DNA from: a virus
Lineage: Duplodnaviria > Heunggongvirae > Uroviricota > Caudoviricetes
Virus record (IMG/VR): IMGVR_UViG_2778261064_000020
Location: 1 to 39,924 of that record
Length of the DNA: 39,924 nt
Reading direction: 5' to 3' (one strand)
A program made the translations under genes and the position numbers. Of this stretch, positions 1 to 38,916 are shown piece after piece; positions within the stretch are counted from its first letter, which is position 1, and each line of letters starts with the position of its first letter. Under the pieces are notes generated by a model. The model made no database searches and had not been told where the DNA came from. It saw only the letters and a list, made by a program, of their open reading frames with translations.

Positions 1-1248
1 ATGGCACTGAATATACCATTCAGAAATGTGTACTATCGTTTTGCATCCAGTTACTCATTTCTCTTTTTTATTTCCTGGTCGCTGTGGTGGTCGTTATACG
101 CTATTTGGCTGAAAGGACATCTAGGGTTGACTGGGACGGAATTAGGTACACTTTATTCGGTCAACCAGTTTACCAGTATTCTATTTATGATGGTCTACGG
201 CATCGTCCAGGATAAACTCGGTCTGAAGAAACCGCTTATCTGGTGTATGAGTTTCATCCTGGTCTTGACCGGACCGTTTATGATTTACGTTTATGAACCG
301 TTACTGCAAAGCAATTTTTCTGTAGGTCTAATTTTGGGGGCGCTCTTTTTTGGCTTGGGGTATCTGGCGGGCTGCGGTCTGCTTGATAGCTTCACCGAAA
401 AAATGGCACGAAATTTTCATTTCGAATATGGAACAGCGCGCGCCTGGGGATCTTTTGGCTATGCGATTGGCGCGTTCTTTGCTGGCATATTTTTCAGTAT
501 CAGTCCCCATATCAACTTCTGGTTGGTTTCGCTATTTGGCGCTGTATTTATGATGATCAACATGCGTTTTAAATATCAGGATCAGCAGTGCGTAGCGGCA
601 GATGCGGGAGGGGTAAAAAAAGAGGATTTTATTGCAGTTTTCAAGGATCGAAACTTCTGGATTTTCGTCATATTTATTGTGGGGACGTGGTCTTTCTATA
701 ACATTTTTGATCAACAGCTCTTTCCTGTTTTTTATGCAGGTTTATTCGAATCACACGATGTAGGAACGCGCCTGTATGGTTATCTCAACTCATTCCAGGT
801 TGTACTCGAAGCGCTGTGCATGGCCATTATTCCTTTCTTTGTTAATCGGGTAGGGCCAAAAAATGCATTACTTATCGGTGTTGTGATTATGGCGTTGCGT
901 ATTCTTTCCTGCGCACTGTTCGTTAATCCCTGGATTATTTCATTAGTGAAGCTGTTACATGCCATTGAGGTTCCACTGTGTGTCATTTCCGTCTTCAAAT
1001 ACAGCGTGGCAAACTTTGATAAGCGCCTGTCGTCGACGATCTTTCTGATTGGTTTTCAAATTGCCAGTTCGTTGGGGATTGTGTTGCTTTCAACGCCGAC
1101 TGGAATACTTTTTGACCATGCAGGTTACCAGACGGTTTTCTTCGTAATTTCGGGTATTGTCTGCCTGATGTTGTTATTTGGCATTTTCTTCCTGAGTAAA
1201 AAACGTGAGCAAATGGTGATGGAAACGCCTGTACCTTCTGCAATATAG
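1..1248 (+). CDS. cscB: Sucrose:H+ symporter, LacY/oligosaccharide-H+ symporter family MFS permease
   Basis: 415-aa ORF; N-terminus MALNIPFRN.YYRFASSYSFLFF and overall LacY-like 12-TM layout match CscB as I recall it; csc locus is known to lie next to argW in sucrose-positive E. coli. Confidence 0.8.
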   Translation: MALNIPFRNVYYRFASSYSFLFFISWSLWWSLYAIWLKGHLGLTGTELGTLYSVNQFTSILFMMVYGIVQDKLGLKKPLIWCMSFILVLTGPFMIYVYEPLLQSNFSVGLILGALFFGLGYLAGCGLLDSFTEKMARNFHFEYGTARAWGSFGYAIGAFFAGIFFSISPHINFWLVSLFGAVFMMINMRFKYQDQQCVAADAGGVKKEDFIAVFKDRNFWIFVIFIVGTWSFYNIFDQQLFPVFYAGLFESHDVGTRLYGYLNSFQVVLEALCMAIIPFFVNRVGPKNALLIGVVIMALRILSCALFVNPWIISLVKLLHAIEVPLCVISVFKYSVANFDKRLSSTIFLIGFQIASSLGIVLLSTPTGILFDHAGYQTVFFVISGIVCLMLLFGIFFLSKKREQMVMETPVPSAI

Positions 1249-1677
1249 ACGTAAACTCTTTCCGGTTGTTGTCGATAGCTCTATATCCCTCAACCGGAAA
1301 ATAATAATACCCAAATGCTTAGCGCGGCTAATAATCGCCTAATCCAAACGCCTCATTCATGTTCTGGAACAGTCGCTCAAATGTACTCATGATACGCGGT
1401 TCGCTGATTTCCAGGAAATTGTCGTAATTCAGCGACCTGTCCCGTGTATCACGGGCCTGCTAATCCATCAAGGAATGCATTGCGGAGTGAAGTATCGAGT
1501 CAAGCCAGATTTCGCGATCAGGATTCTGTGTGATGATTACATTGCCAGGCCCGGGGCTGTTTAGTCATCGCCGCACAGTGCTGAGATTTCAACCTGTTGC
1601 AGGGAAAATGAGTAGATTTAGGGCAAGTGTGCTGCCAAACCCAACTTTTACGCGGGGAAGGTAGATTTCGTTGGAAG

Positions 1678-1698
1678 GATAAATGGTGTCCCCTGCAG
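1678..1698. repeat. Prophage att core copy (partial duplicate of argW 3' end), GATAAATGGTGTCCCCTGCAG
   Basis: Exact 21-bp direct repeat of 38836-38856, which overlaps the 3' end of tRNA-Arg; read directly from the sequence. Confidence 0.85.
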
Positions 1699-1771
1699 AC
1701 ATCTACTTGACGCGACAGGGGATTGATTAGAATGGTGTTTTTTAGATGTGAGAAATATTTTACCCGCTATT

Positions 1772-1972
1772 TTACCCATTGGCGCGGCTTAAGAGCTTAT
1801 TTTTGAATTCACAATGGTCACGATATAACCATCTTGCTCGCCCGTGGATAACTTTGGCTTTTGGCAGGTCGCCGGACTTAATCCGGTCATAGATGAAGGT
1901 TTTACCGAAGCCAGTATCGGCCATGATGAATTTCAAATCAACCAGTGAATCAGGCTGTAGTTCGTGTTGCAT
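1772..1972 (-). CDS. torI: Excisionase / recombination directionality factor, AlpA-Xis family (TorI-like)
   Basis: 66-aa ORF at the prophage end opposite the integrase; winged-helix Xis/AlpA-like sequence; matches my recollection of KplE1 TorI. Confidence 0.75.
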   Translation of the reverse strand: MQHELQPDSLVDLKFIMADTGFGKTFIYDRIKSGDLPKAKVIHGRARWLYRDHCEFKNKLLSRANG

Positions 1973-2017
1973 GAGTGCTATCTCCGAATAGGGAATCGAA
2001 CCTGCAAATCAGGCAAT

Positions 2018-2040
2018 AAAAAACCGCCATCAGGCGGTTT
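2018..2040 (-). terminator. Rho-independent terminator of the leftward early transcript
   Basis: Minus-strand hairpin AAACCGCC-TGAT-GGCGGTTT followed by TTTTTTATTG; overlaps the stop of the upstream small ORF. Confidence 0.6.
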
Positions 2041-2197
2041 GGTGTTCTTTCAGTTCTTCAATTCGAATATTTGTTACGTCTGCATGCGCTATCTGCGCCC
2101 ATATCATCCAGTGGTTATAGCAGTCGTTGATGTCCTCTGCTTCGATAACCCTGTTGAATGGTTCTCCATTCCATTCACCTGTGACTCGGAAGTGCAT
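2030..2197 (-). CDS. Small hypothetical phage protein (55 aa, MHFRVTGEWNGEPF...)
   Basis: ORF below the 60-aa track cut-off, found by manual translation; sits in the early-left operon directly upstream of the terminator. Coordinates approximate to within 1-2 nt. Confidence 0.35.
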   Translation of the reverse strand: MHFRVTGEWNGEPFNRVIEAEDINDCYNHWMIWAQIAHADVTNIRIEELKEHQTA

Positions 2198-2355
2198 TTA
2201 TCATCTCCATAAAACAAAACTCGCCGTAGCGAGTTCAGATAAAAGAAATCCCCGCGAGTGCGAGGATTGTTATTGTCTTTTCTTCGTGCATTTGTCGTAC
2301 TTTCGGCACCATCCAGATAGGCACATCCGTCCGCAATTAACACATATAGGCCACA

Positions 2356-2637
2356 TCATTTTTCCTCTTTTGGTTTATGAATCTGAATGGTTATGCCGCT
2401 TTGAGTGGTGACAACAATGACAGAACCAGGCTGAAGGCTGTTAAGATTGAATGCTTCGTAAAACGAATCCAAGGCCAGCGCTTTTTTATTCTTTCGGTTC
2501 CACCAACGCCATCCCTTGCTACAGGCTACACTGACAATCCACTGCCCACTCCTGTAAGCCATATAAAACCAGATGAGCAAAACCTGAAGGAATGCTATCC
2601 AGTCAATAATCGTATATTTCGCGAAGGAGTCCATCAC
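2356..2637 (-). CDS. Hypothetical small membrane protein (one predicted N-terminal TM helix, then WRWWNRKNKK)
   Basis: 93-aa ORF in the same orientation as the early-left operon; hydrophobic stretch IIDWIAFLQVLLIWFYMAY. Confidence 0.55.
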   Translation of the reverse strand: MMDSFAKYTIIDWIAFLQVLLIWFYMAYRSGQWIVSVACSKGWRWWNRKNKKALALDSFYEAFNLNSLQPGSVIVVTTQSGITIQIHKPKEEK

Positions 2638-3134
2638 TTCACCTCCTGCTGCGGTGCTGCTGGCATTTCACACCAGTGCGTAACTGAGTGCGGATCCGGA
2701 TATTCGGTGCCATCATCCCAGCGATTGCCATTCCACATTGCAGACCACATCTCACCGTCTTCATACATGACCATTACCGGAATTAACTTATCCGGCATTC
2801 GCTCACTACAGCTTATCCAACCATCCGGAGTTACCGGCACTGGCTTGGCGGTATAAAGCGGTGTTATATCTGCCAGAAAATTACATGCTTTATGCAGCCG
2901 CACCCACCGTTCGACTTCTGCTTTGTCAGAATACATACCAGTGAACGTGTTATATTCACGGTCAATTTGCGTGAAAGTTACCTTCCACGCCACCGGTTCT
3001 GCTTCCAGCGATGCCAGAGCAATCCGTGCCAGTTCTTCCGCTTCTTCTGCTGGCAGTACAACGTTGCTACCAGGTCCGTATGTTTCGCGCCACTGCCTGA
3101 TTGTCAGCAGTCGCTCTTTGGTAATAGTGGTCAT
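2634..3134 (-). CDS. DUF551-domain phage protein
   Basis: C-terminal W...SCSERMP...VTHWCEMP motif typical of DUF551; start chosen at MTTITKERL with an AGGAGA ribosome-binding site, overlapping the upstream stop (a longer alternative extends to 3257). Confidence 0.6.
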   Translation of the reverse strand: MTTITKERLLTIRQWRETYGPGSNVVLPAEEAEELARIALASLEAEPVAWKVTFTQIDREYNTFTGMYSDKAEVERWVRLHKACNFLADITPLYTAKPVPVTPDGWISCSERMPDKLIPVMVMYEDGEMWSAMWNGNRWDDGTEYPDPHSVTHWCEMPAAPQQEVK

Positions 3135-3135
3135 A

Positions 3136-3690
3136 TCACTCTCCTTTGATGCGAATGCCAGCGGCGCGGATAGATTTCCATTGTCCCCACATTCGGTTGA
3201 AGTCTGTGCCTGATAAGGTCGCGTTACGGTATCCAGTTTCAGTGCGCAATCCTTCAAGCGTCGATTTGGAGATACAAATTGAATGCATTACCCATGATTC
3301 AAACAAATCACGCTCCCGGGCTTCGCAACTTTGCTTACTCATCTCTTCGATACGTTCAGCCATCGCAGCACACTCTTCAAAGTTACTTAATGCTTTTCGC
3401 TCCCATTCGGAGCATTGTTTTCCAAGCTCGGCAATCAGTTTGTCTTTGCCTTCCAGCTCGTCCAGCAACGCCTGCACTACTTCTGGGTTGAAAGCTGCGA
3501 TATAACGAGCGTTGTTCTCTGCGTTTTTCTGTCCATCAAAGCCGGTCCATTTGATAACGTCTTCACATCGTTTATCACCGGGCGTATGCACCGCATACGT
3601 CCCAGTACCCGGCGAAATAAATGCGACCCATTCGCTTTGTGTTGCCTGTTTTGCTATCTCACGCAGTGCCTGATAGTCAATCTTGTTCAT
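3136..3690 (-). CDS. ead/Ea22-like family phage protein
   Basis: 184 aa; N-terminal QALRE...ATQSEW and NPEVVQALLDELE pattern typical of Ea22-like early proteins. Confidence 0.6.
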   Translation of the reverse strand: MNKIDYQALREIAKQATQSEWVAFISPGTGTYAVHTPGDKRCEDVIKWTGFDGQKNAENNARYIAAFNPEVVQALLDELEGKDKLIAELGKQCSEWERKALSNFEECAAMAERIEEMSKQSCEARERDLFESWVMHSICISKSTLEGLRTETGYRNATLSGTDFNRMWGQWKSIRAAGIRIKGE

Positions 3691-3691
3691 G

Positions 3692-3991
3692 TCACATCAC
3701 CCTGAATCCGTTGCATTTACGTAAAAAATCGCAGATATAGCCCTTCATTTTTTCGTGCCAATCTCGATCATTCCCATTGCACCAACCATCAGGTGGAGTC
3801 CAGTTTTCTATCAGAGCAGCCATTTTCTTTGCTTTTGCAGGAGTAGCTGTTGCGGTATCGCAGTAATGACGAGTGTCGATCAACGTATCCATACCATCGA
3901 TATCAAGTACGCAAAACCATGTGTGATTCGGCATTTCAACAGATGGTATTTGTTGCCCACGTCGACGTTTATCAATAAGACATACAGTCAC
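3692..3991 (-). CDS. Hypothetical phage early protein
   Basis: 99-aa ORF, tightly packed in the early-left operon; no recognisable motif. Confidence 0.5.
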   Translation of the reverse strand: MTVCLIDKRRRGQQIPSVEMPNHTWFCVLDIDGMDTLIDTRHYCDTATATPAKAKKMAALIENWTPPDGWCNGNDRDWHEKMKGYICDFLRKCNGFRVM

Positions 3992-4464
3992 TTGTTGCCT
4001 CCTTCACGTAGCTCGGCGGCAAAAGCTACTGCGTGATCATGATGTTCAAGTGTGTATGCACACTCCGCAAACATCTCCACCCCCTGCGCACGTACTTCAG
4101 CCAGGAATGCGTCGGTGGCCGGGGTTTTGATTTCGTTAAGTGCATCACTGAATCCACCTCTCTCCATACCTAGCTCTGCTTCGTAATCGGCATCGAATGC
4201 AGCGTCTTTGCAGAACTTCTTCAGCCCCGCATTCTCCACCGCCAGCGCTGAAAACTTCTCGTGTGCCAACTTAACAGCCGAATAAGCCTGCTTAATTGAC
4301 TCAATCGCTCTCTGCTGGTCTTCGGACAGAGCCGAAATCTTGGCCTCCGCTTCAGCAAATTTACGCACCAGATATTCAGCGTTTGTTTCGTTGACCTTTA
4401 AATCTCGTGGGATGCATTTGCCTTTCAGAAAACCATCCATCTCAATTAGTGTCATTTGTTTCAT
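3988..4464 (-). CDS. Hypothetical phage early protein (possibly Ea22-related)
   Basis: 158-aa ORF with coiled-coil-like N-terminus; overlaps neighbouring genes by ATGA-type junctions. Confidence 0.55.
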
Positions 4465-7508: not shown

Positions 7509-8132
7509 CTATGCGGCCTCGGAAGGAAGTCCAATCATCTTATTCAAATCTTCTACCCGTAAAGCAGGAAGTGCTGTACTTGCTTTATCTGCTTCTTTTG
7601 GTAGCAATTCTTTGCTTTCAGGCCAAACCTCAATAAGTCGCTTAACTGTTGTGACTGAGTTCAAAGCAGCCCATACATTTGATTCGATATCCTTTTTCTT
7701 GGCTTCAAGTTTTTGTTGCAATGCGCAGATTTCATCAAACCTTTTTGTTATTTCGTGTTCTGCGCTAAACATGCATTTATCTTTGTTCGGAGTAGGGAGC
7801 AATATATCTTCGCCGTTGCCGTCTTTCCCATATGAAAGCCATCCAACCCTTCTGCCAGATACAGTCAGATAAATTGAAGTAGAACGAACATCGTATGAGT
7901 AAAATGAACATCCAATCTTTCCAAGTTCTTCACTTATAGCTACCAACTTGGATGATAACTGATTCACTTCCTCAGTTTTCTTTTTACCGCCAAACGCAAT
8001 AACTCTGGCGTCAAGTGCAAGCTGGTTCTTTAACTTTGTTACTTCTTCAAGTTCAGTGAAAACCCCAGACTTAATTAAAGCGTTACGAGCGATTTCCTCT
8101 TTCATTCTCGTAGTTAAGCGGATTGATGACAT
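7509..8132 (-). CDS. Hypothetical protein in the N-cIII intergenic slot (lambda ral/sieB/ea10 position)
   Basis: 207 aa starting MSSIRLTTRMKEE with a GAGG ribosome-binding site; soluble, no recognisable motif. Confidence 0.55.
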   Translation of the reverse strand: MSSIRLTTRMKEEIARNALIKSGVFTELEEVTKLKNQLALDARVIAFGGKKKTEEVNQLSSKLVAISEELGKIGCSFYSYDVRSTSIYLTVSGRRVGWLSYGKDGNGEDILLPTPNKDKCMFSAEHEITKRFDEICALQQKLEAKKKDIESNVWAALNSVTTVKRLIEVWPESKELLPKEADKASTALPALRVEDLNKMIGLPSEAA

Positions 8133-8143
8133 ATTAATTCCTC

Positions 8144-8470
8144 TCAAATAAGTGGTTTGCTGCCTAATTTCATTTTCTGGCGACCAACACAAGTCACACC
8201 CATTTCACTGCGTGGCTTGCTGTACCATGTGCGCTGATTCTTGCGCTCAATACGTTGCAGGTTGCTTTCAATCTGTTCGTGGTATTCAGCCAGTACCGTA
8301 AGGTCTATCGGATTCAGTGCGCTTTCTACTCGTGATTTCGGTTTGCGATTCAGCGAGAGAATAGGGCGGTTAACTGGTTTTGCGCTTACCCCAACCAACA
8401 GGGGATTTGCTGCTTTCCATTGAGCCTGTTTCTCTGCGCGACGTTCGCGGCGGCGTGCTTGTGCATCCAT
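8144..8470 (-). CDS. N: Antitermination protein N
   Basis: MDAQARRRERRAEKQAQWKAANPLLVGVSAKPVNRPILSLNRKPKSRVESALNPIDLTVLAEYH... is near-identical to lambda N as recalled (arginine-rich motif). Confidence 0.85.
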   Translation of the reverse strand: MDAQARRRERRAEKQAQWKAANPLLVGVSAKPVNRPILSLNRKPKSRVESALNPIDLTVLAEYHEQIESNLQRIERKNQRTWYSKPRSEMGVTCVGRQKMKLGSKPLI

Positions 8471-8580
8471 CTGAATTCTCCTGTCAGTTAGCTTTGAGTA
8501 ACGCGCCGTGATGCTTATCTCCACGGTTGCTGTCTTGCAGCTGCATTTCGCGCTACTCAAAGCTTTCTGCTTTGAATGCT

Positions 8581-32888: not shown

Positions 32889-33374
32889 CTACCTGATATT
32901 ACTGCTACTGTTGCATGTTACCGTGTTTCCAAATCCTGAATTGCAGTTTGTATATGTGTCAACGCGTGTTGGGTAAGGTTGAGTTATAACAGGCTGGCGC
33001 GCTTTTTGCTCGATCGCTTGCATTGTGTTTACAGCCTGATAATTCAATAAAGCCTGCTGGAATGCTTGGCTTTGTGCTATTTGTTGTGCTTGTTCTTGGC
33101 TTTGTAATTGAACATAAAGATTCTGAAGTTCAAGTCTTGCCTGTGTGTCACTTATCTTGCCTTCATCGACACCTTGCCCGAGCATCTTCGCAGCAAGGAC
33201 ATACAGCTTAGGTGTTGGTGCTGATGCCATGCGAGAGTCGTTCTTCAAGCTGGCATCAAGGCAATTAGCCATATCGCTAAGCTTTGGATAGCGTTGCTCG
33301 CAACTTGCCTGATAGTCGCTTACTTTTGCGCACCCAGCCAGCAGAAGCGGGATAATTAACAGTGATTTTTTCAT
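32889..33374 (-). CDS. Lipoprotein of unknown function (moron in the sieA slot)
   Basis: Start at MKKSLLIIPLLLAGC with AAGGAGAG ribosome-binding site; signal peptide plus lipobox LLAGC; Gln-rich helical middle; Cys-containing C-terminus. Confidence 0.6.
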   Translation of the reverse strand: MKKSLLIIPLLLAGCAKVSDYQASCEQRYPKLSDMANCLDASLKNDSRMASAPTPKLYVLAAKMLGQGVDEGKISDTQARLELQNLYVQLQSQEQAQQIAQSQAFQQALLNYQAVNTMQAIEQKARQPVITQPYPTRVDTYTNCNSGFGNTVTCNSSSNIR

Positions 33375-33408
33375 ATAATTAACTCTCCTTAGTTTTGCGC
33401 AGGATACC

Positions 33409-33774
33409 ATGAAAAAAGTTAACATTGGAAACGTACCAAAGATGCTCGTACCGCTCTTTGAGAGCGGTACAATTGTGTTTTGTAGAGACTTTCCAGAATG
33501 GCAACGCCTGCATCAAAAACTTGGCGTTGACGTGCATGACTCGGACGCCAACGGAGCGTCTCATACAATGAGTAGCGAGAATGGTGTTTTGCATGTGATA
33601 GGCGTGTTCAATGGCAAACTATCTACTATTGCCCATGAGTGCGCTCACATGGCATTCGATATCTGCTCAAGGGTAGGTGTTGATGTTGAACCAGGAAGAG
33701 CCAACGAGACTTACTGCTACTTAATGAGCAGGCTTGTTGAGTTCTGCGAGCGACATATCAAAAAGCCGGAGTGA
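33409..33774 (+). CDS. Small HExxH-motif protein, putative Zn-metallopeptidase-like
   Basis: 121 aa; IAHECAHMAFD contains HExxH with a Glu 19 residues downstream (gluzincin-like spacing); AGGA ribosome-binding site; divergent from the lipoprotein gene with only 34 nt between start codons. Confidence 0.5.
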   Translation: MKKVNIGNVPKMLVPLFESGTIVFCRDFPEWQRLHQKLGVDVHDSDANGASHTMSSENGVLHVIGVFNGKLSTIAHECAHMAFDICSRVGVDVEPGRANETYCYLMSRLVEFCERHIKKPE

Positions 33775-37522: not shown

Positions 37523-38680
37523 TCACTCCACCTTTTCATCAAGCCAATCTGCCCACCACTGCATCATTTCTCTGCGCTTGTCGAGATACTGAGCGTGGTT
37601 GTAAATCCCGCGCACAGATCCGCCGTTGGCATGTGCCAGTTGCACTTCAATAGCATCAGCAGGCCATTCGTGCTCGTTCATAATCGTGCTGAATTCATGC
37701 CTGAATCCGTGACCGCTTTCCAGCCCTTCATAGCCAATTTGTTTGATCACAAGCAATACCGCGTTCTCGCAGATTGGCTTCTTCTTATCGTTGCGCCCGG
37801 CAAAAACAAACTCTGAGACTGGTTTGGTGATTGAGCTTAGCGTAGTGAGAAGTTCAACCACCTGGTCTGACATCGGGACCACATGAATTTTGCGTCCCTT
37901 CATCACACTGGCGTCGATGGTGATAATCCTGTTTTCAAAATCGACGTTCTTCCATAGCATGGAACGAAGCTCTTTTGTTCTTAGGGCTGTGTAGCGTAAA
38001 ACTTTGGTCGCAATGAGCGATACGATACTTCCTGAAAATGTTGCCAGTGCTTTGTTGAATGCCGGGATCTGGTCTGCAGGAAGAAACGGGAAGTTCTTCT
38101 TGCGGTATCCCTTCATGGCGTCAGCAAGGTCAGGTGCTGGGTTATATTTAGCCCTTCCGGTGACAATAGCGTAACGGAAAACCTCGCCGCATCTTCTGCG
38201 GGCTTTATTTGCTCGCTCCATTGCACCGCGATCTTCAAATCTGCGGATTACTTCCAGCAGTTGCATCGGCTCAATATCCTGAATCTCAAGACCGCCGATG
38301 ATGGGTAAAATGTCGTCATCAAACATTTTTGCAAGTTCAGTCGCATACCCTACTGACCAGACTTGCTTCTTGTGTTCGTACCATTCCTTGTAAATTGCAC
38401 TAAAGGAATTGTTGTTAGACGAAGCCTTTTTCGCCTTTACCGGATCGATGCCAACCGAGATGTCTTTCCTCGCAGTCCATGCCTTATCCCTTGCTTCCTG
38501 CAAAGTCATAAGCGGATATTTTCCTACGGTCAGGATTTTCTCCTTACCGTCAATCTTGTAGCGAAGCTGCCATACCTTTTTCCCTGATACAGGGACATAA
38601 AGGTACAGGCCATTACCATCGAGAAGGCGGTATGGTTTTTCTTTCGGCTTTGCTGCTTCAATCTGCTTAACGGTGAGCAT
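37523..38680 (-). CDS. intS: Tyrosine integrase, P4/IntS type (argW-specific)
   Basis: Matches E. coli IntS as recalled (MLTVKQIEAAKPKEKPYRLLDGNGLYLYVPVSGKKVWQLRYKIDGKEK...); C-terminal R...HGFRH...Y catalytic residues; an in-frame upstream Met at 38716 is also possible. Confidence 0.85.
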   Translation of the reverse strand: MLTVKQIEAAKPKEKPYRLLDGNGLYLYVPVSGKKVWQLRYKIDGKEKILTVGKYPLMTLQEARDKAWTARKDISVGIDPVKAKKASSNNNSFSAIYKEWYEHKKQVWSVGYATELAKMFDDDILPIIGGLEIQDIEPMQLLEVIRRFEDRGAMERANKARRRCGEVFRYAIVTGRAKYNPAPDLADAMKGYRKKNFPFLPADQIPAFNKALATFSGSIVSLIATKVLRYTALRTKELRSMLWKNVDFENRIITIDASVMKGRKIHVVPMSDQVVELLTTLSSITKPVSEFVFAGRNDKKKPICENAVLLVIKQIGYEGLESGHGFRHEFSTIMNEHEWPADAIEVQLAHANGGSVRGIYNHAQYLDKRREMMQWWADWLDEKVE

Positions 38681-38835
38681 GGGTAAAAATCCGGTGGGTA
38701 AAATTATTTTATCCACTTTTTACCCGTCATGGAGTGCGGCTGTCAACGATCTGACGCGAACCATGACGAACTGTGAATCTACGGAAGGCTTGATATTCAG
38801 GGGATTTTGCGGACTGGTACGGATGGAGGCGAACT

Positions 38836-38856
38836 GATAAATGGTGTCCCCTGCAG
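38836..38856. repeat. Prophage att core copy overlapping the argW 3' end
   Basis: Exact 21-bp direct repeat of 1678-1698. Confidence 0.85.
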
Positions 38857-38916
38857 GAATCGAACCTGCAATTAGCCCTTAGGAGGGGCTCGTTATATCC
38901 ATTTAACTAAGAGGAC
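38842..38916 (-). tRNA. argW: tRNA-Arg (anticodon CCU)
   Basis: Reverse complement reads GTCCTCTTAGTTAAATGGATATAACGAGCCCCTCCTAAGGGCTAATTGCAGGTTCGATTCCTGCAGGGGACACCA; canonical cloverleaf with CCT anticodon. Confidence 0.9.

Follow-up and report, generated by a model that had tools for sequence, protein, structure and literature searches.

The minus-strand open reading frame at 2356..2637 of the window, that is, the whole 39,924-nucleotide stretch of viral DNA analysed here, encodes a member of the DUF4752 family predicted to be a small single-pass inner-membrane protein, and the best explanation of its features as a whole, to which we give about an even chance, is that it serves at the inner membrane as an early accessory factor for host takeover or counter-defence. 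In the proposed mechanism, the hydrophobic helix would insert with the N-terminus periplasmic and the C-terminus cytoplasmic, following the positive-inside rule and probably without a cleaved signal peptide. The protein would be translated from the N-antiterminated PL transcript, and only once infection or induction has set in, and its tethered basic linker, its small C-terminal part and the sequence-constrained helix would together engage a host target at the cytoplasmic face. It would act as a dispensable early host-takeover or counter-defence factor and not as a prophage-expressed exclusion protein. The context is taken to constrain when and where such a factor works, namely made with the early lytic genes, anchored in the membrane and with its conserved part predicted to be cytoplasmic. 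The locus comprises the following elements:

2356..2634, minus strand: DUF4752 coding sequence, 92 aa, with the ATG at 2634 (2632..2634) and the stop codon at 2356..2358
2642..2647, minus strand: Shine-Dalgarno sequence AGGAGG, lying within the final codons (..QQEVK*) of the gene upstream
2634..3134, minus strand: upstream gene with a C-terminal DUF551 domain, probably starting at Met42 of the listed ORF 2634..3257
2554..2613, minus strand: predicted transmembrane helix TIIDWIAFLQVLLIWFYMAY, codons for residues 8-27 (92-aa numbering)
2482..2511, minus strand: WRWWNRKNKK, Trp/Arg/Lys-rich stretch, residues 42-51, on the predicted cytoplasmic side
2359..2481, minus strand: most conserved part of the family, residues 52-92, with a helix, a PG turn and a beta-hairpin according to family alignments
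2270..2356, minus strand: Cys-rich mini-ORF of 28 codons, MWPICVNCGRMCLSGWCRKYDKCTKKRQ, putatively coding, whose ATG overlaps the DUF4752 stop codon (TGATG)
2217..2268, minus strand: two tandem intrinsic-terminator-like hairpins (2268-2247 and 2236-2217; terminator scan), directly after the mini-ORF

The six-frame ORF list gives the minus-strand ORF 2356..2637 as 93 codons with a GTG start, the GTG at 2637 standing one codon upstream of an ATG within the start region, which reads GCAGGAGGTGAAGTGATGGAC on the minus strand. The ATG at 2634, which yields 92 aa, is the likelier start because (i) the AGGAGG lies 7 nt from the ATG versus 4 nt from the GTG; (ii) the TGA of the upstream ORF at 2634..2636 shares its A with this ATG, forming a TGATG overlap; and (iii) the RefSeq homologues are annotated with 92-94 aa and begin with MDSFAKY. 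The 93-aa ORF of the initial annotation is real on the minus strand, but its start is better placed at ATG 2634 than at GTG 2637. Two plus-strand ORFs, 2127..2411 and 2377..2856, overlap the locus and were treated as antisense artefacts, since all homology and selection signals fall on the minus strand.

The sequence, at first not recognised, is a textbook member of Pfam DUF4752 and PHROG 667, annotated in RefSeq phages and in hundreds of E. coli genomes. The match to Pfam DUF4752 (PF15944) reaches 122.9 bits, the cut-off being 27 (E=5.7e-36), and spans profile positions 2-84 of 84, and the match to phrog_667, of the category 'unknown function', aligns residues 2-93 with profile positions 1-91 of 94 (E=6.8e-38). 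With 92 aa, the protein has the size of the DUF4752 family, which comprises stand-alone proteins of ~85-95 aa from enterobacterial phages and prophages; the full-length members among 48 homologues, a set including many truncated fragments or longer, probably mis-started, calls, have 89-94 aa. The ORF is thus already catalogued as DUF4752, and the occurrence of the gene here adds nothing new.

In tblastn searches, 51 phage records matched the protein with 89-99% identity and 70 more with <60% identity (121 at the looser threshold); phage records with a DUF4752 match include HK106, IME10, Kapi1, mEp043/mEp213, ST104, CUS-3 and many Stx phages. A profile search of 1.84 billion protein cluster representatives retrieved only 42 relatives at E<1e-3. 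Of 5426 complete E. coli genomes, 549 (~10%) carry DUF4752 DNA, in three copies or fewer per genome, where it is annotated as 'DUF4752 family protein'. The homologues from HK106 (gp31, 98.9% identity), ST104 (ORF7), Kapi1 (Kapi1_004, 95.7% identity, the first 33 residues being identical) and mEp043/mEp213 are 94.6-98.9% identical to the window protein over the full length, and share with the window copy the length, the DUF551-ending upstream gene, the TGATG junction and the position near xis. The C-terminus reads ..KPKEEK in the window and is followed by the mini-ORF and the terminators, as in HK106 and Kapi1, whereas in ST104 it reads ..EEGRG and is followed by an ASCH gene. As far as these alignments indicate, nothing of substance distinguishes the window copy from the HK106/ST104/Kapi1-type homologues.

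The DUF4752 ORF is a real gene under purifying selection. The dN/dS ratio of the whole gene (Nei-Gojobori) lies between 0.06 and 0.26 in every informative pair, these including some pairs with dS >1, formed with the prophage copies L008-L010 (P0014 cluster, named for Enterobacter); calculated separately, where dS was estimable, the helix part gives ~0.2-0.3 and the C-terminal part 0.07-0.23. In several Stx-converting phages, namely Stx2 phage 86, phi419, phi315, phi296 and phiSTEC801 (records H52-H56, H75), the gene is split in two, apparently by frameshifting, and DUF4752 is absent from E. coli K-12, including its prophage CPS-53. Given the frameshifted copies in several Stx phages and the absence from K-12 CPS-53, the gene is dispensable in prophages.

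The best 19-residue segment, TIIDWIAFLQVLLIWFYMA (residues 8-26, 92-aa numbering), has a Kyte-Doolittle mean of 1.78, with a Wimley-White octanol sum for the helix window of about -12 to -13 kcal/mol, whereas its crude position-independent Hessa sum is slightly positive, owing to one Asp and one Gln in the window; near-invariant Asp and Gln residues are carried by the helix segment across homologues. The initial annotation had described one strongly hydrophobic helix: the helix is indeed single, but with a mean of this size and with Asp and Gln inside it is moderately hydrophobic. The GenBank record of Kapi1_004, whose helix stretch is identical to that of the window protein, carries the depositor's note 'DeepTMHMM: TMhelix residues 9-27'. 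In addition, AlphaFold2 (AF2) modelled the helix region with pLDDT 87-90, in two runs with 14 and 28 aligned sequences that are confident for the membrane helix only.

The hydrophobic N-terminal segment is kept in 27 of the 28 aligned family representatives, and in 27 of the 28 the short, neutral to acidic N-terminal tail contains 0-1 Lys/Arg before the helix (3 in the outlier P0064), against 5-10 in the 25 residues that follow it; the window protein has 1 and 7, respectively. This asymmetry is conserved even among members only 20-30% identical. According to the positive-inside rule, the charge bias would place the N-terminus outside and the C-terminus in the cytoplasm, and the protein is accordingly predicted to be a bitopic N-out/C-in inner-membrane protein, an assignment that denotes a topology class, not a homology family. 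The original proposal of a small single-pass membrane protein is in line with the hydrophobicity, the conserved charge bias, the AF2 helix and the DeepTMHMM note of Kapi1_004. Residues D12, W13 and Q18-A27 (93-aa numbering) vary little or not at all within the close subfamily, down to 62% overall identity, so the helix is constrained by more than simple hydrophobicity.

The string WRWWNRKNKK, referred to earlier as juxtamembrane, does follow the helix, but begins ~15 residues past the helix end; a more polar tail comes after it. WRWW occurs in the close subfamily only, the distant members displaying QWDKRRKxxRRQK instead; across the wider DUF4752 family only the basic character of the post-helix stretch is general. 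The best-kept motif of the family, A-[LVI]-[DN]-x-F-Y-[ED]-A-F-x-L, precedes the PG turn and the beta-hairpin of the C-terminal part, for which AF2 proposes a helix at residues 50-61 and strands at 72-76 and 82-86, with a pLDDT of only 56-68.

Searches for a function gave (i) no match for the ORF in NCBIfam; (ii) no family among the PADLOC-DB 2.0 defence HMMs at E<=1; (iii) nothing beyond chance matches when all PDB sequences were searched with a profile at E<=10; and (iv) generic long-helix matches only in fold searches against PDB folds and viral folds. Clear homology to a characterised protein was found in none of Pfam, PHROG, PADLOC, NCBIfam and the PDB sequences, and no published work on a DUF4752 protein was found in the literature searched, which covered DUF4752, exo-xis membrane proteins, accessory-gene screens, DUF551 and Kapi1. 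A suspected similarity between AFNLNSLQPGSVIVVTTQSGITIQI and the second half of MazE/AbrB was rejected, hhalign returning probabilities of 0.8% for MazE and 0.3% for AbrB. In support of a SpoVT/AbrB (MazE-like) swapped-hairpin domain, profile searches with the C-terminal half gave nothing in Pfam at E<=10 nor in the PDB sequences, and AF2 models residues 40-52 as a helix, not as the hairpin expected for SpoVT/AbrB.

The early-left region runs, from N leftwards, through Nmad5, a Kil-like ORF, RecT, Gp157, several small genes, DUF7739, Ead/Ea22 and the DUF551 gene to DUF4752, and the genes leftward of N are all minus-strand and tightly packed. The upstream gene matches Pfam DUF551 with E=8.8e-17, and its homologues start with MSTISKERL or MTTITKERL. 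A scan with a simple consensus, which weak or non-sigma-70 promoters may escape, found no sigma-70-like promoter on the minus strand within 1250..4000, and through its junction with the upstream gene DUF4752 is coupled translationally to the PL operon. No other sizeable ORF follows it before the terminators of this N-antiterminated operon. The placement at the distal end of the early-left operon in the initial annotation holds insofar as DUF4752 is the last sizeable gene before two hairpins, although the mini-ORF, the orf55-like gene and xis follow on the same strand; downstream of the tandem hairpins, the order is a lambda orf55-like gene (phrog_676), a terminator-like hairpin at 2040-2021 and xis.

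The mini-ORF is conserved in Kapi1, Dewey and HK106, where it is annotated as gp30, and is missing in ST104, which carries an ASCH gene instead; two nucleotide differences were seen, both non-synonymous, and no PHROG matches. A role as an obligate partner of DUF4752 was rejected, the mini-ORF being absent from ST104-type copies. At the other end of the region, immediately downstream of N, the Nmad5 protein at 7509..8192 (minus strand) matches the Pfam nucleotide modification associated domain 5 with E=2e-71.

The PL-side position near xis is common to HK106, ST104, Kapi1 and Dewey, and the junction described above is identical in Kapi1, ST104 and Dewey and near-identical in HK106. In these four phages the upstream gene ends in DUF551 whatever its N-terminal domain: HK106 and ST104 have Ead/Ea22 there, Kapi1 a dATP/dGTP pyrophosphohydrolase. 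A DUF551-ending upstream gene was found in all close relatives examined. A ..QQEVK/QQEVR tail is kept on otherwise divergent or unrelated upstream proteins and coincides with the DUF4752 Shine-Dalgarno sequence, so the linkage with DUF551 may in part reflect a constraint on translation initiation. The idea that DUF551 is an obligate partner is unsupported, the distant members from D6, SPN1S, Klebsiella, the Mu-like element and L012 having no DUF551-ending upstream gene.

Besides the PL side, relatives occupy several other positions. Three prophage loci (L008-L010, 68% identity) carry the DUF551-DUF4752 pair in a rightward early operon, between a DnaB-like replication gene and NinB. In the PR/nin-side copies the replication gene is DnaB-like or, in L012, IstB/DnaC-like, and another prophage (62% identity) has DUF4752 downstream of the gene for a Lar-like protein, with NinB once more following. 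In a Mu-like element, whose copy is 64% identical, DUF4752 directly follows the transposase (MuA-like) and MuB-like genes, and distant members are located in early accessory clusters of the P1-like D6, the epsilon15-like SPN1S and a Klebsiella phage, next to Ead/Ea22-like, Eaf (DUF5448) and other uncharacterised genes. Neighbours with known or annotated host-directed early functions comprise Abc2, the dATP/dGTP pyrophosphohydrolase, the Lar-like domain and a queuine tRNA-ribosyltransferase. Every relative examined lies inside an early lytic transcription unit (PL, PR/nin, Mu-early, P1-like or epsilon15-like), and none of the contexts examined is a separately transcribed prophage cassette.

K-12 CPS-53 (KplE1), with its gene order yfdS-yfdT-torI, shares with the window the argW site, an identical recombination directionality factor (RDF), the DUF551 gene (yfdS) and the order of the genes, but after yfdS comes yfdT, which encodes a soluble protein unrelated to DUF4752. 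CPS-53 has lost DUF4752, with yfdT in its place. K-12 YfdT (L095 11874..12179) also ends in ..QQEVK although DUF4752 is gone, as does the upstream gene of the window at 2634..2660; a hidden DUF4752 homology of YfdT was rejected, and YfdT keeps only this tail.

Against this background, the options of the initial annotation, superinfection exclusion and host takeover, to which counter-defence is added here, are not equally likely. Host takeover or counter-defence plausibly fits the context as analysed. The relatives lie always in early lytic units and never in a separate prophage cassette, which favours an early lytic role over classical exclusion, and the presence of the family in phages of five virion types favours a host target rather than a phage-specific one. 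An exclusion protein would block the entry of incoming phage DNA, through leaky expression in the lysogen or during the lytic cycle, and T4 Imm acts as an exclusion protein in infected cells. We consider this unlikely for DUF4752, even though it is a predicted small inner-membrane protein encoded by a temperate phage and known exclusion proteins, for example SieA of P22-like phages, are inner-membrane proteins (PMC10883804). SieA comprises 162-164 aa with 3-4 predicted helices, and its gene has a dedicated promoter, is active in the prophage and resides in a fixed slot between genes 16 and 9 (PMC10883804), whereas the DUF4752 ORF displays one hydrophobic segment, no promoter-like site, a location in PL and no homology to SieA; the motif FxRYPxEAxxFNK of SieA types A-C (PMC10883804) is absent from its sequence, and the 16-9 slot of the window holds the lipoprotein ORF 32889..33425. 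Classical exclusion requires expression from the repressed prophage and is disfavoured by the lack of a minus-strand promoter in the scan and by the coupling inside PL. In keeping with this, the gene was never seen in a separately transcribed prophage cassette among the contexts examined, and the PADLOC, Pfam and PHROG searches linked it to no Sie family. Moreover, the family spans podo-, sipho- and myovirus-type temperate phages, which makes a target in one particular injection machine unlikely. On the other side, RNA-seq of Kapi1 lysogens does not list the homologue among the undetected genes, the signal from lytic genes being ascribed by the authors to spontaneous induction (PMC12922286); this points to some transcript of the homologue in lysogen cultures, which speaks for exclusion and counts against expression from PL only.

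A rather unlikely alternative is that the protein modulates the host cell cycle or the choice between lysis and lysogeny, in the manner of Ea22, Ea8.5 and orf60a/61/63 of the lambda exo-xis region, acting for example through a membrane protease or the division machinery. Mu carries kil right after B, and in the Mu-like element DUF4752 follows the B gene, the position of Mu kil, although a Kil-like gene is annotated elsewhere in the homologous early-left region of Kapi1. Likewise, DUF4752 occupies the slot of lambda ea8.5, between the orf55-like and the Ead/Ea22-like genes, and lambda Ea8.5 has 93 aa. The positional analogue is a small non-essential early gene located between orf55 and ea22 in the exo-xis region, but its product is soluble, of solved structure and without a membrane helix (PMC8614690), and shares no sequence similarity with DUF4752. 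Genes of the exo-xis region were reported to shift lysogenisation and induction (PMC3824215, PMC7093339), yet the Pfam scan gave no homology of DUF4752 to exo-xis proteins, and the family also occurs in PR/nin and other early clusters, for which no such role is documented. Quite improbable is a membrane tether for nucleic acid or for a replication or recombination complex, in which the linker and the C-terminal part would bind DNA or RNA in the manner of phi29 p16.7. What speaks for it is the build of the protein, a helix followed by a basic stretch and a small conserved part, together with the recombination or replication genes in the neighbourhood, but there is no recognisable nucleic-acid-binding fold, given the hhalign values for MazE/AbrB and no Pfam or PDB profile match, and the basic stretch could equally bind acidic lipids. 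In Bacillus phages, phi29 p16.7 is a membrane anchor for replication and SPO1 gp56 a division inhibitor, and both resemble DUF4752 in being early, non-structural proteins of <130 aa with one N-terminal membrane helix; the hosts differ, and the functional domain of SPO1 gp56 is extracytoplasmic whereas the conserved part of DUF4752 is predicted to be cytoplasmic. Very improbable, finally, is that the product is no functional membrane protein, either as a spurious or decaying ORF or as a soluble protein with the helix buried in an oligomer. The Asp and Gln of the helix, the positive Hessa sum and the frameshifted copies would suit it, but the strong family match, the purifying selection, the charge asymmetry in members of 20-30% identity and the DeepTMHMM annotation of the near-identical Kapi1_004 do not, and a spurious ORF is refuted by the Pfam match together with dN/dS.

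Returning to the preferred reading of an early host-takeover or counter-defence role, a broader version of it, which we put forward tentatively and with clearly less than even confidence, regards DUF4752 as a class of early membrane-tethered effectors shared by P22-, lambda/HK97-, Mu-, P1- and epsilon15-like temperate phages that would disable a specific host inner-membrane function through the constrained helix and the cytoplasmic part of 40 residues. Candidate targets could be a defence system associated with the membrane, the machinery of cell division or, in the lytic cycle, the entry of DNA, and the effector might act jointly with the translationally coupled DUF551-tailed proteins. The wider value lies in DUF4752 being an abundant accessory protein, carried by ~10% of complete E. 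coli genomes as well as by many phages of the Stx, P22-like and lambdoid kinds; a phenotype, if found, would annotate hundreds of prophage genes at once and extend the poorly understood 'ea'/exo-xis accessory set by a membrane-anchored protein.

The window represents an intact and complete prophage of the P22-like kind, which is integrated at argW and has a lambda-type immunity region. It is flanked by what we take to be cscB at 1..1248, and is bounded on the other side by tRNA-Arg(CCU) at 38842..38916. The ORF 37523..38716 is probably the integrase, as its position beside argW and the layout of Kapi1 and CPS-53 suggest. The excisionase at 1772..1972 (minus strand) is identical at 66 of 66 residues to K-12 TorI (L095 12311..12511), the RDF of CPS-53/KplE1 at argW (PMC4776307). 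Owing to this identity, the window looks like an intact relative of the K-12 cryptic argW prophage, here flanked by cscB. The immunity region contains a cI-like repressor (HTH_3 and Peptidase_S24), ORFs resembling Cro and CII, and an N protein with a match to Pfam N36:

8144..8560, 10216..10929, 11030..11230 and 11289..11642: immunity genes N, cI, cro and cII, respectively

This region is presumably close to that of phage lambda itself, and the virion genes are P22-like, so that the prophage looks like a mosaic of lambda immunity on a Lederbergvirus backbone.

Several further genes of the prophage were recorded. Lambda's rexAB occupies the interval between cI and N, and in the window an ORF of 173 aa (9193..9714, minus strand) lies between the lambda-type cI and N; it belongs to phrog_2602 (unknown function), has no Pfam or PADLOC match and is a candidate prophage-expressed accessory gene. 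The ORF 32889..33425 (minus strand) in the P22 sieA slot is encoded on the strand opposite to the late operon, begins with a lipoprotein signal (MKKSLLIIPLLLAGC...) and belongs to phrog_6067 (unknown function). In addition, two phage-borne tRNA genes, tRNA-Asn(GTT) and tRNA-Thr(TGT), are located at 16713..16868 (plus strand), upstream of the ORFs 17110..18357, which are taken to be the lysis cassette from their position only.
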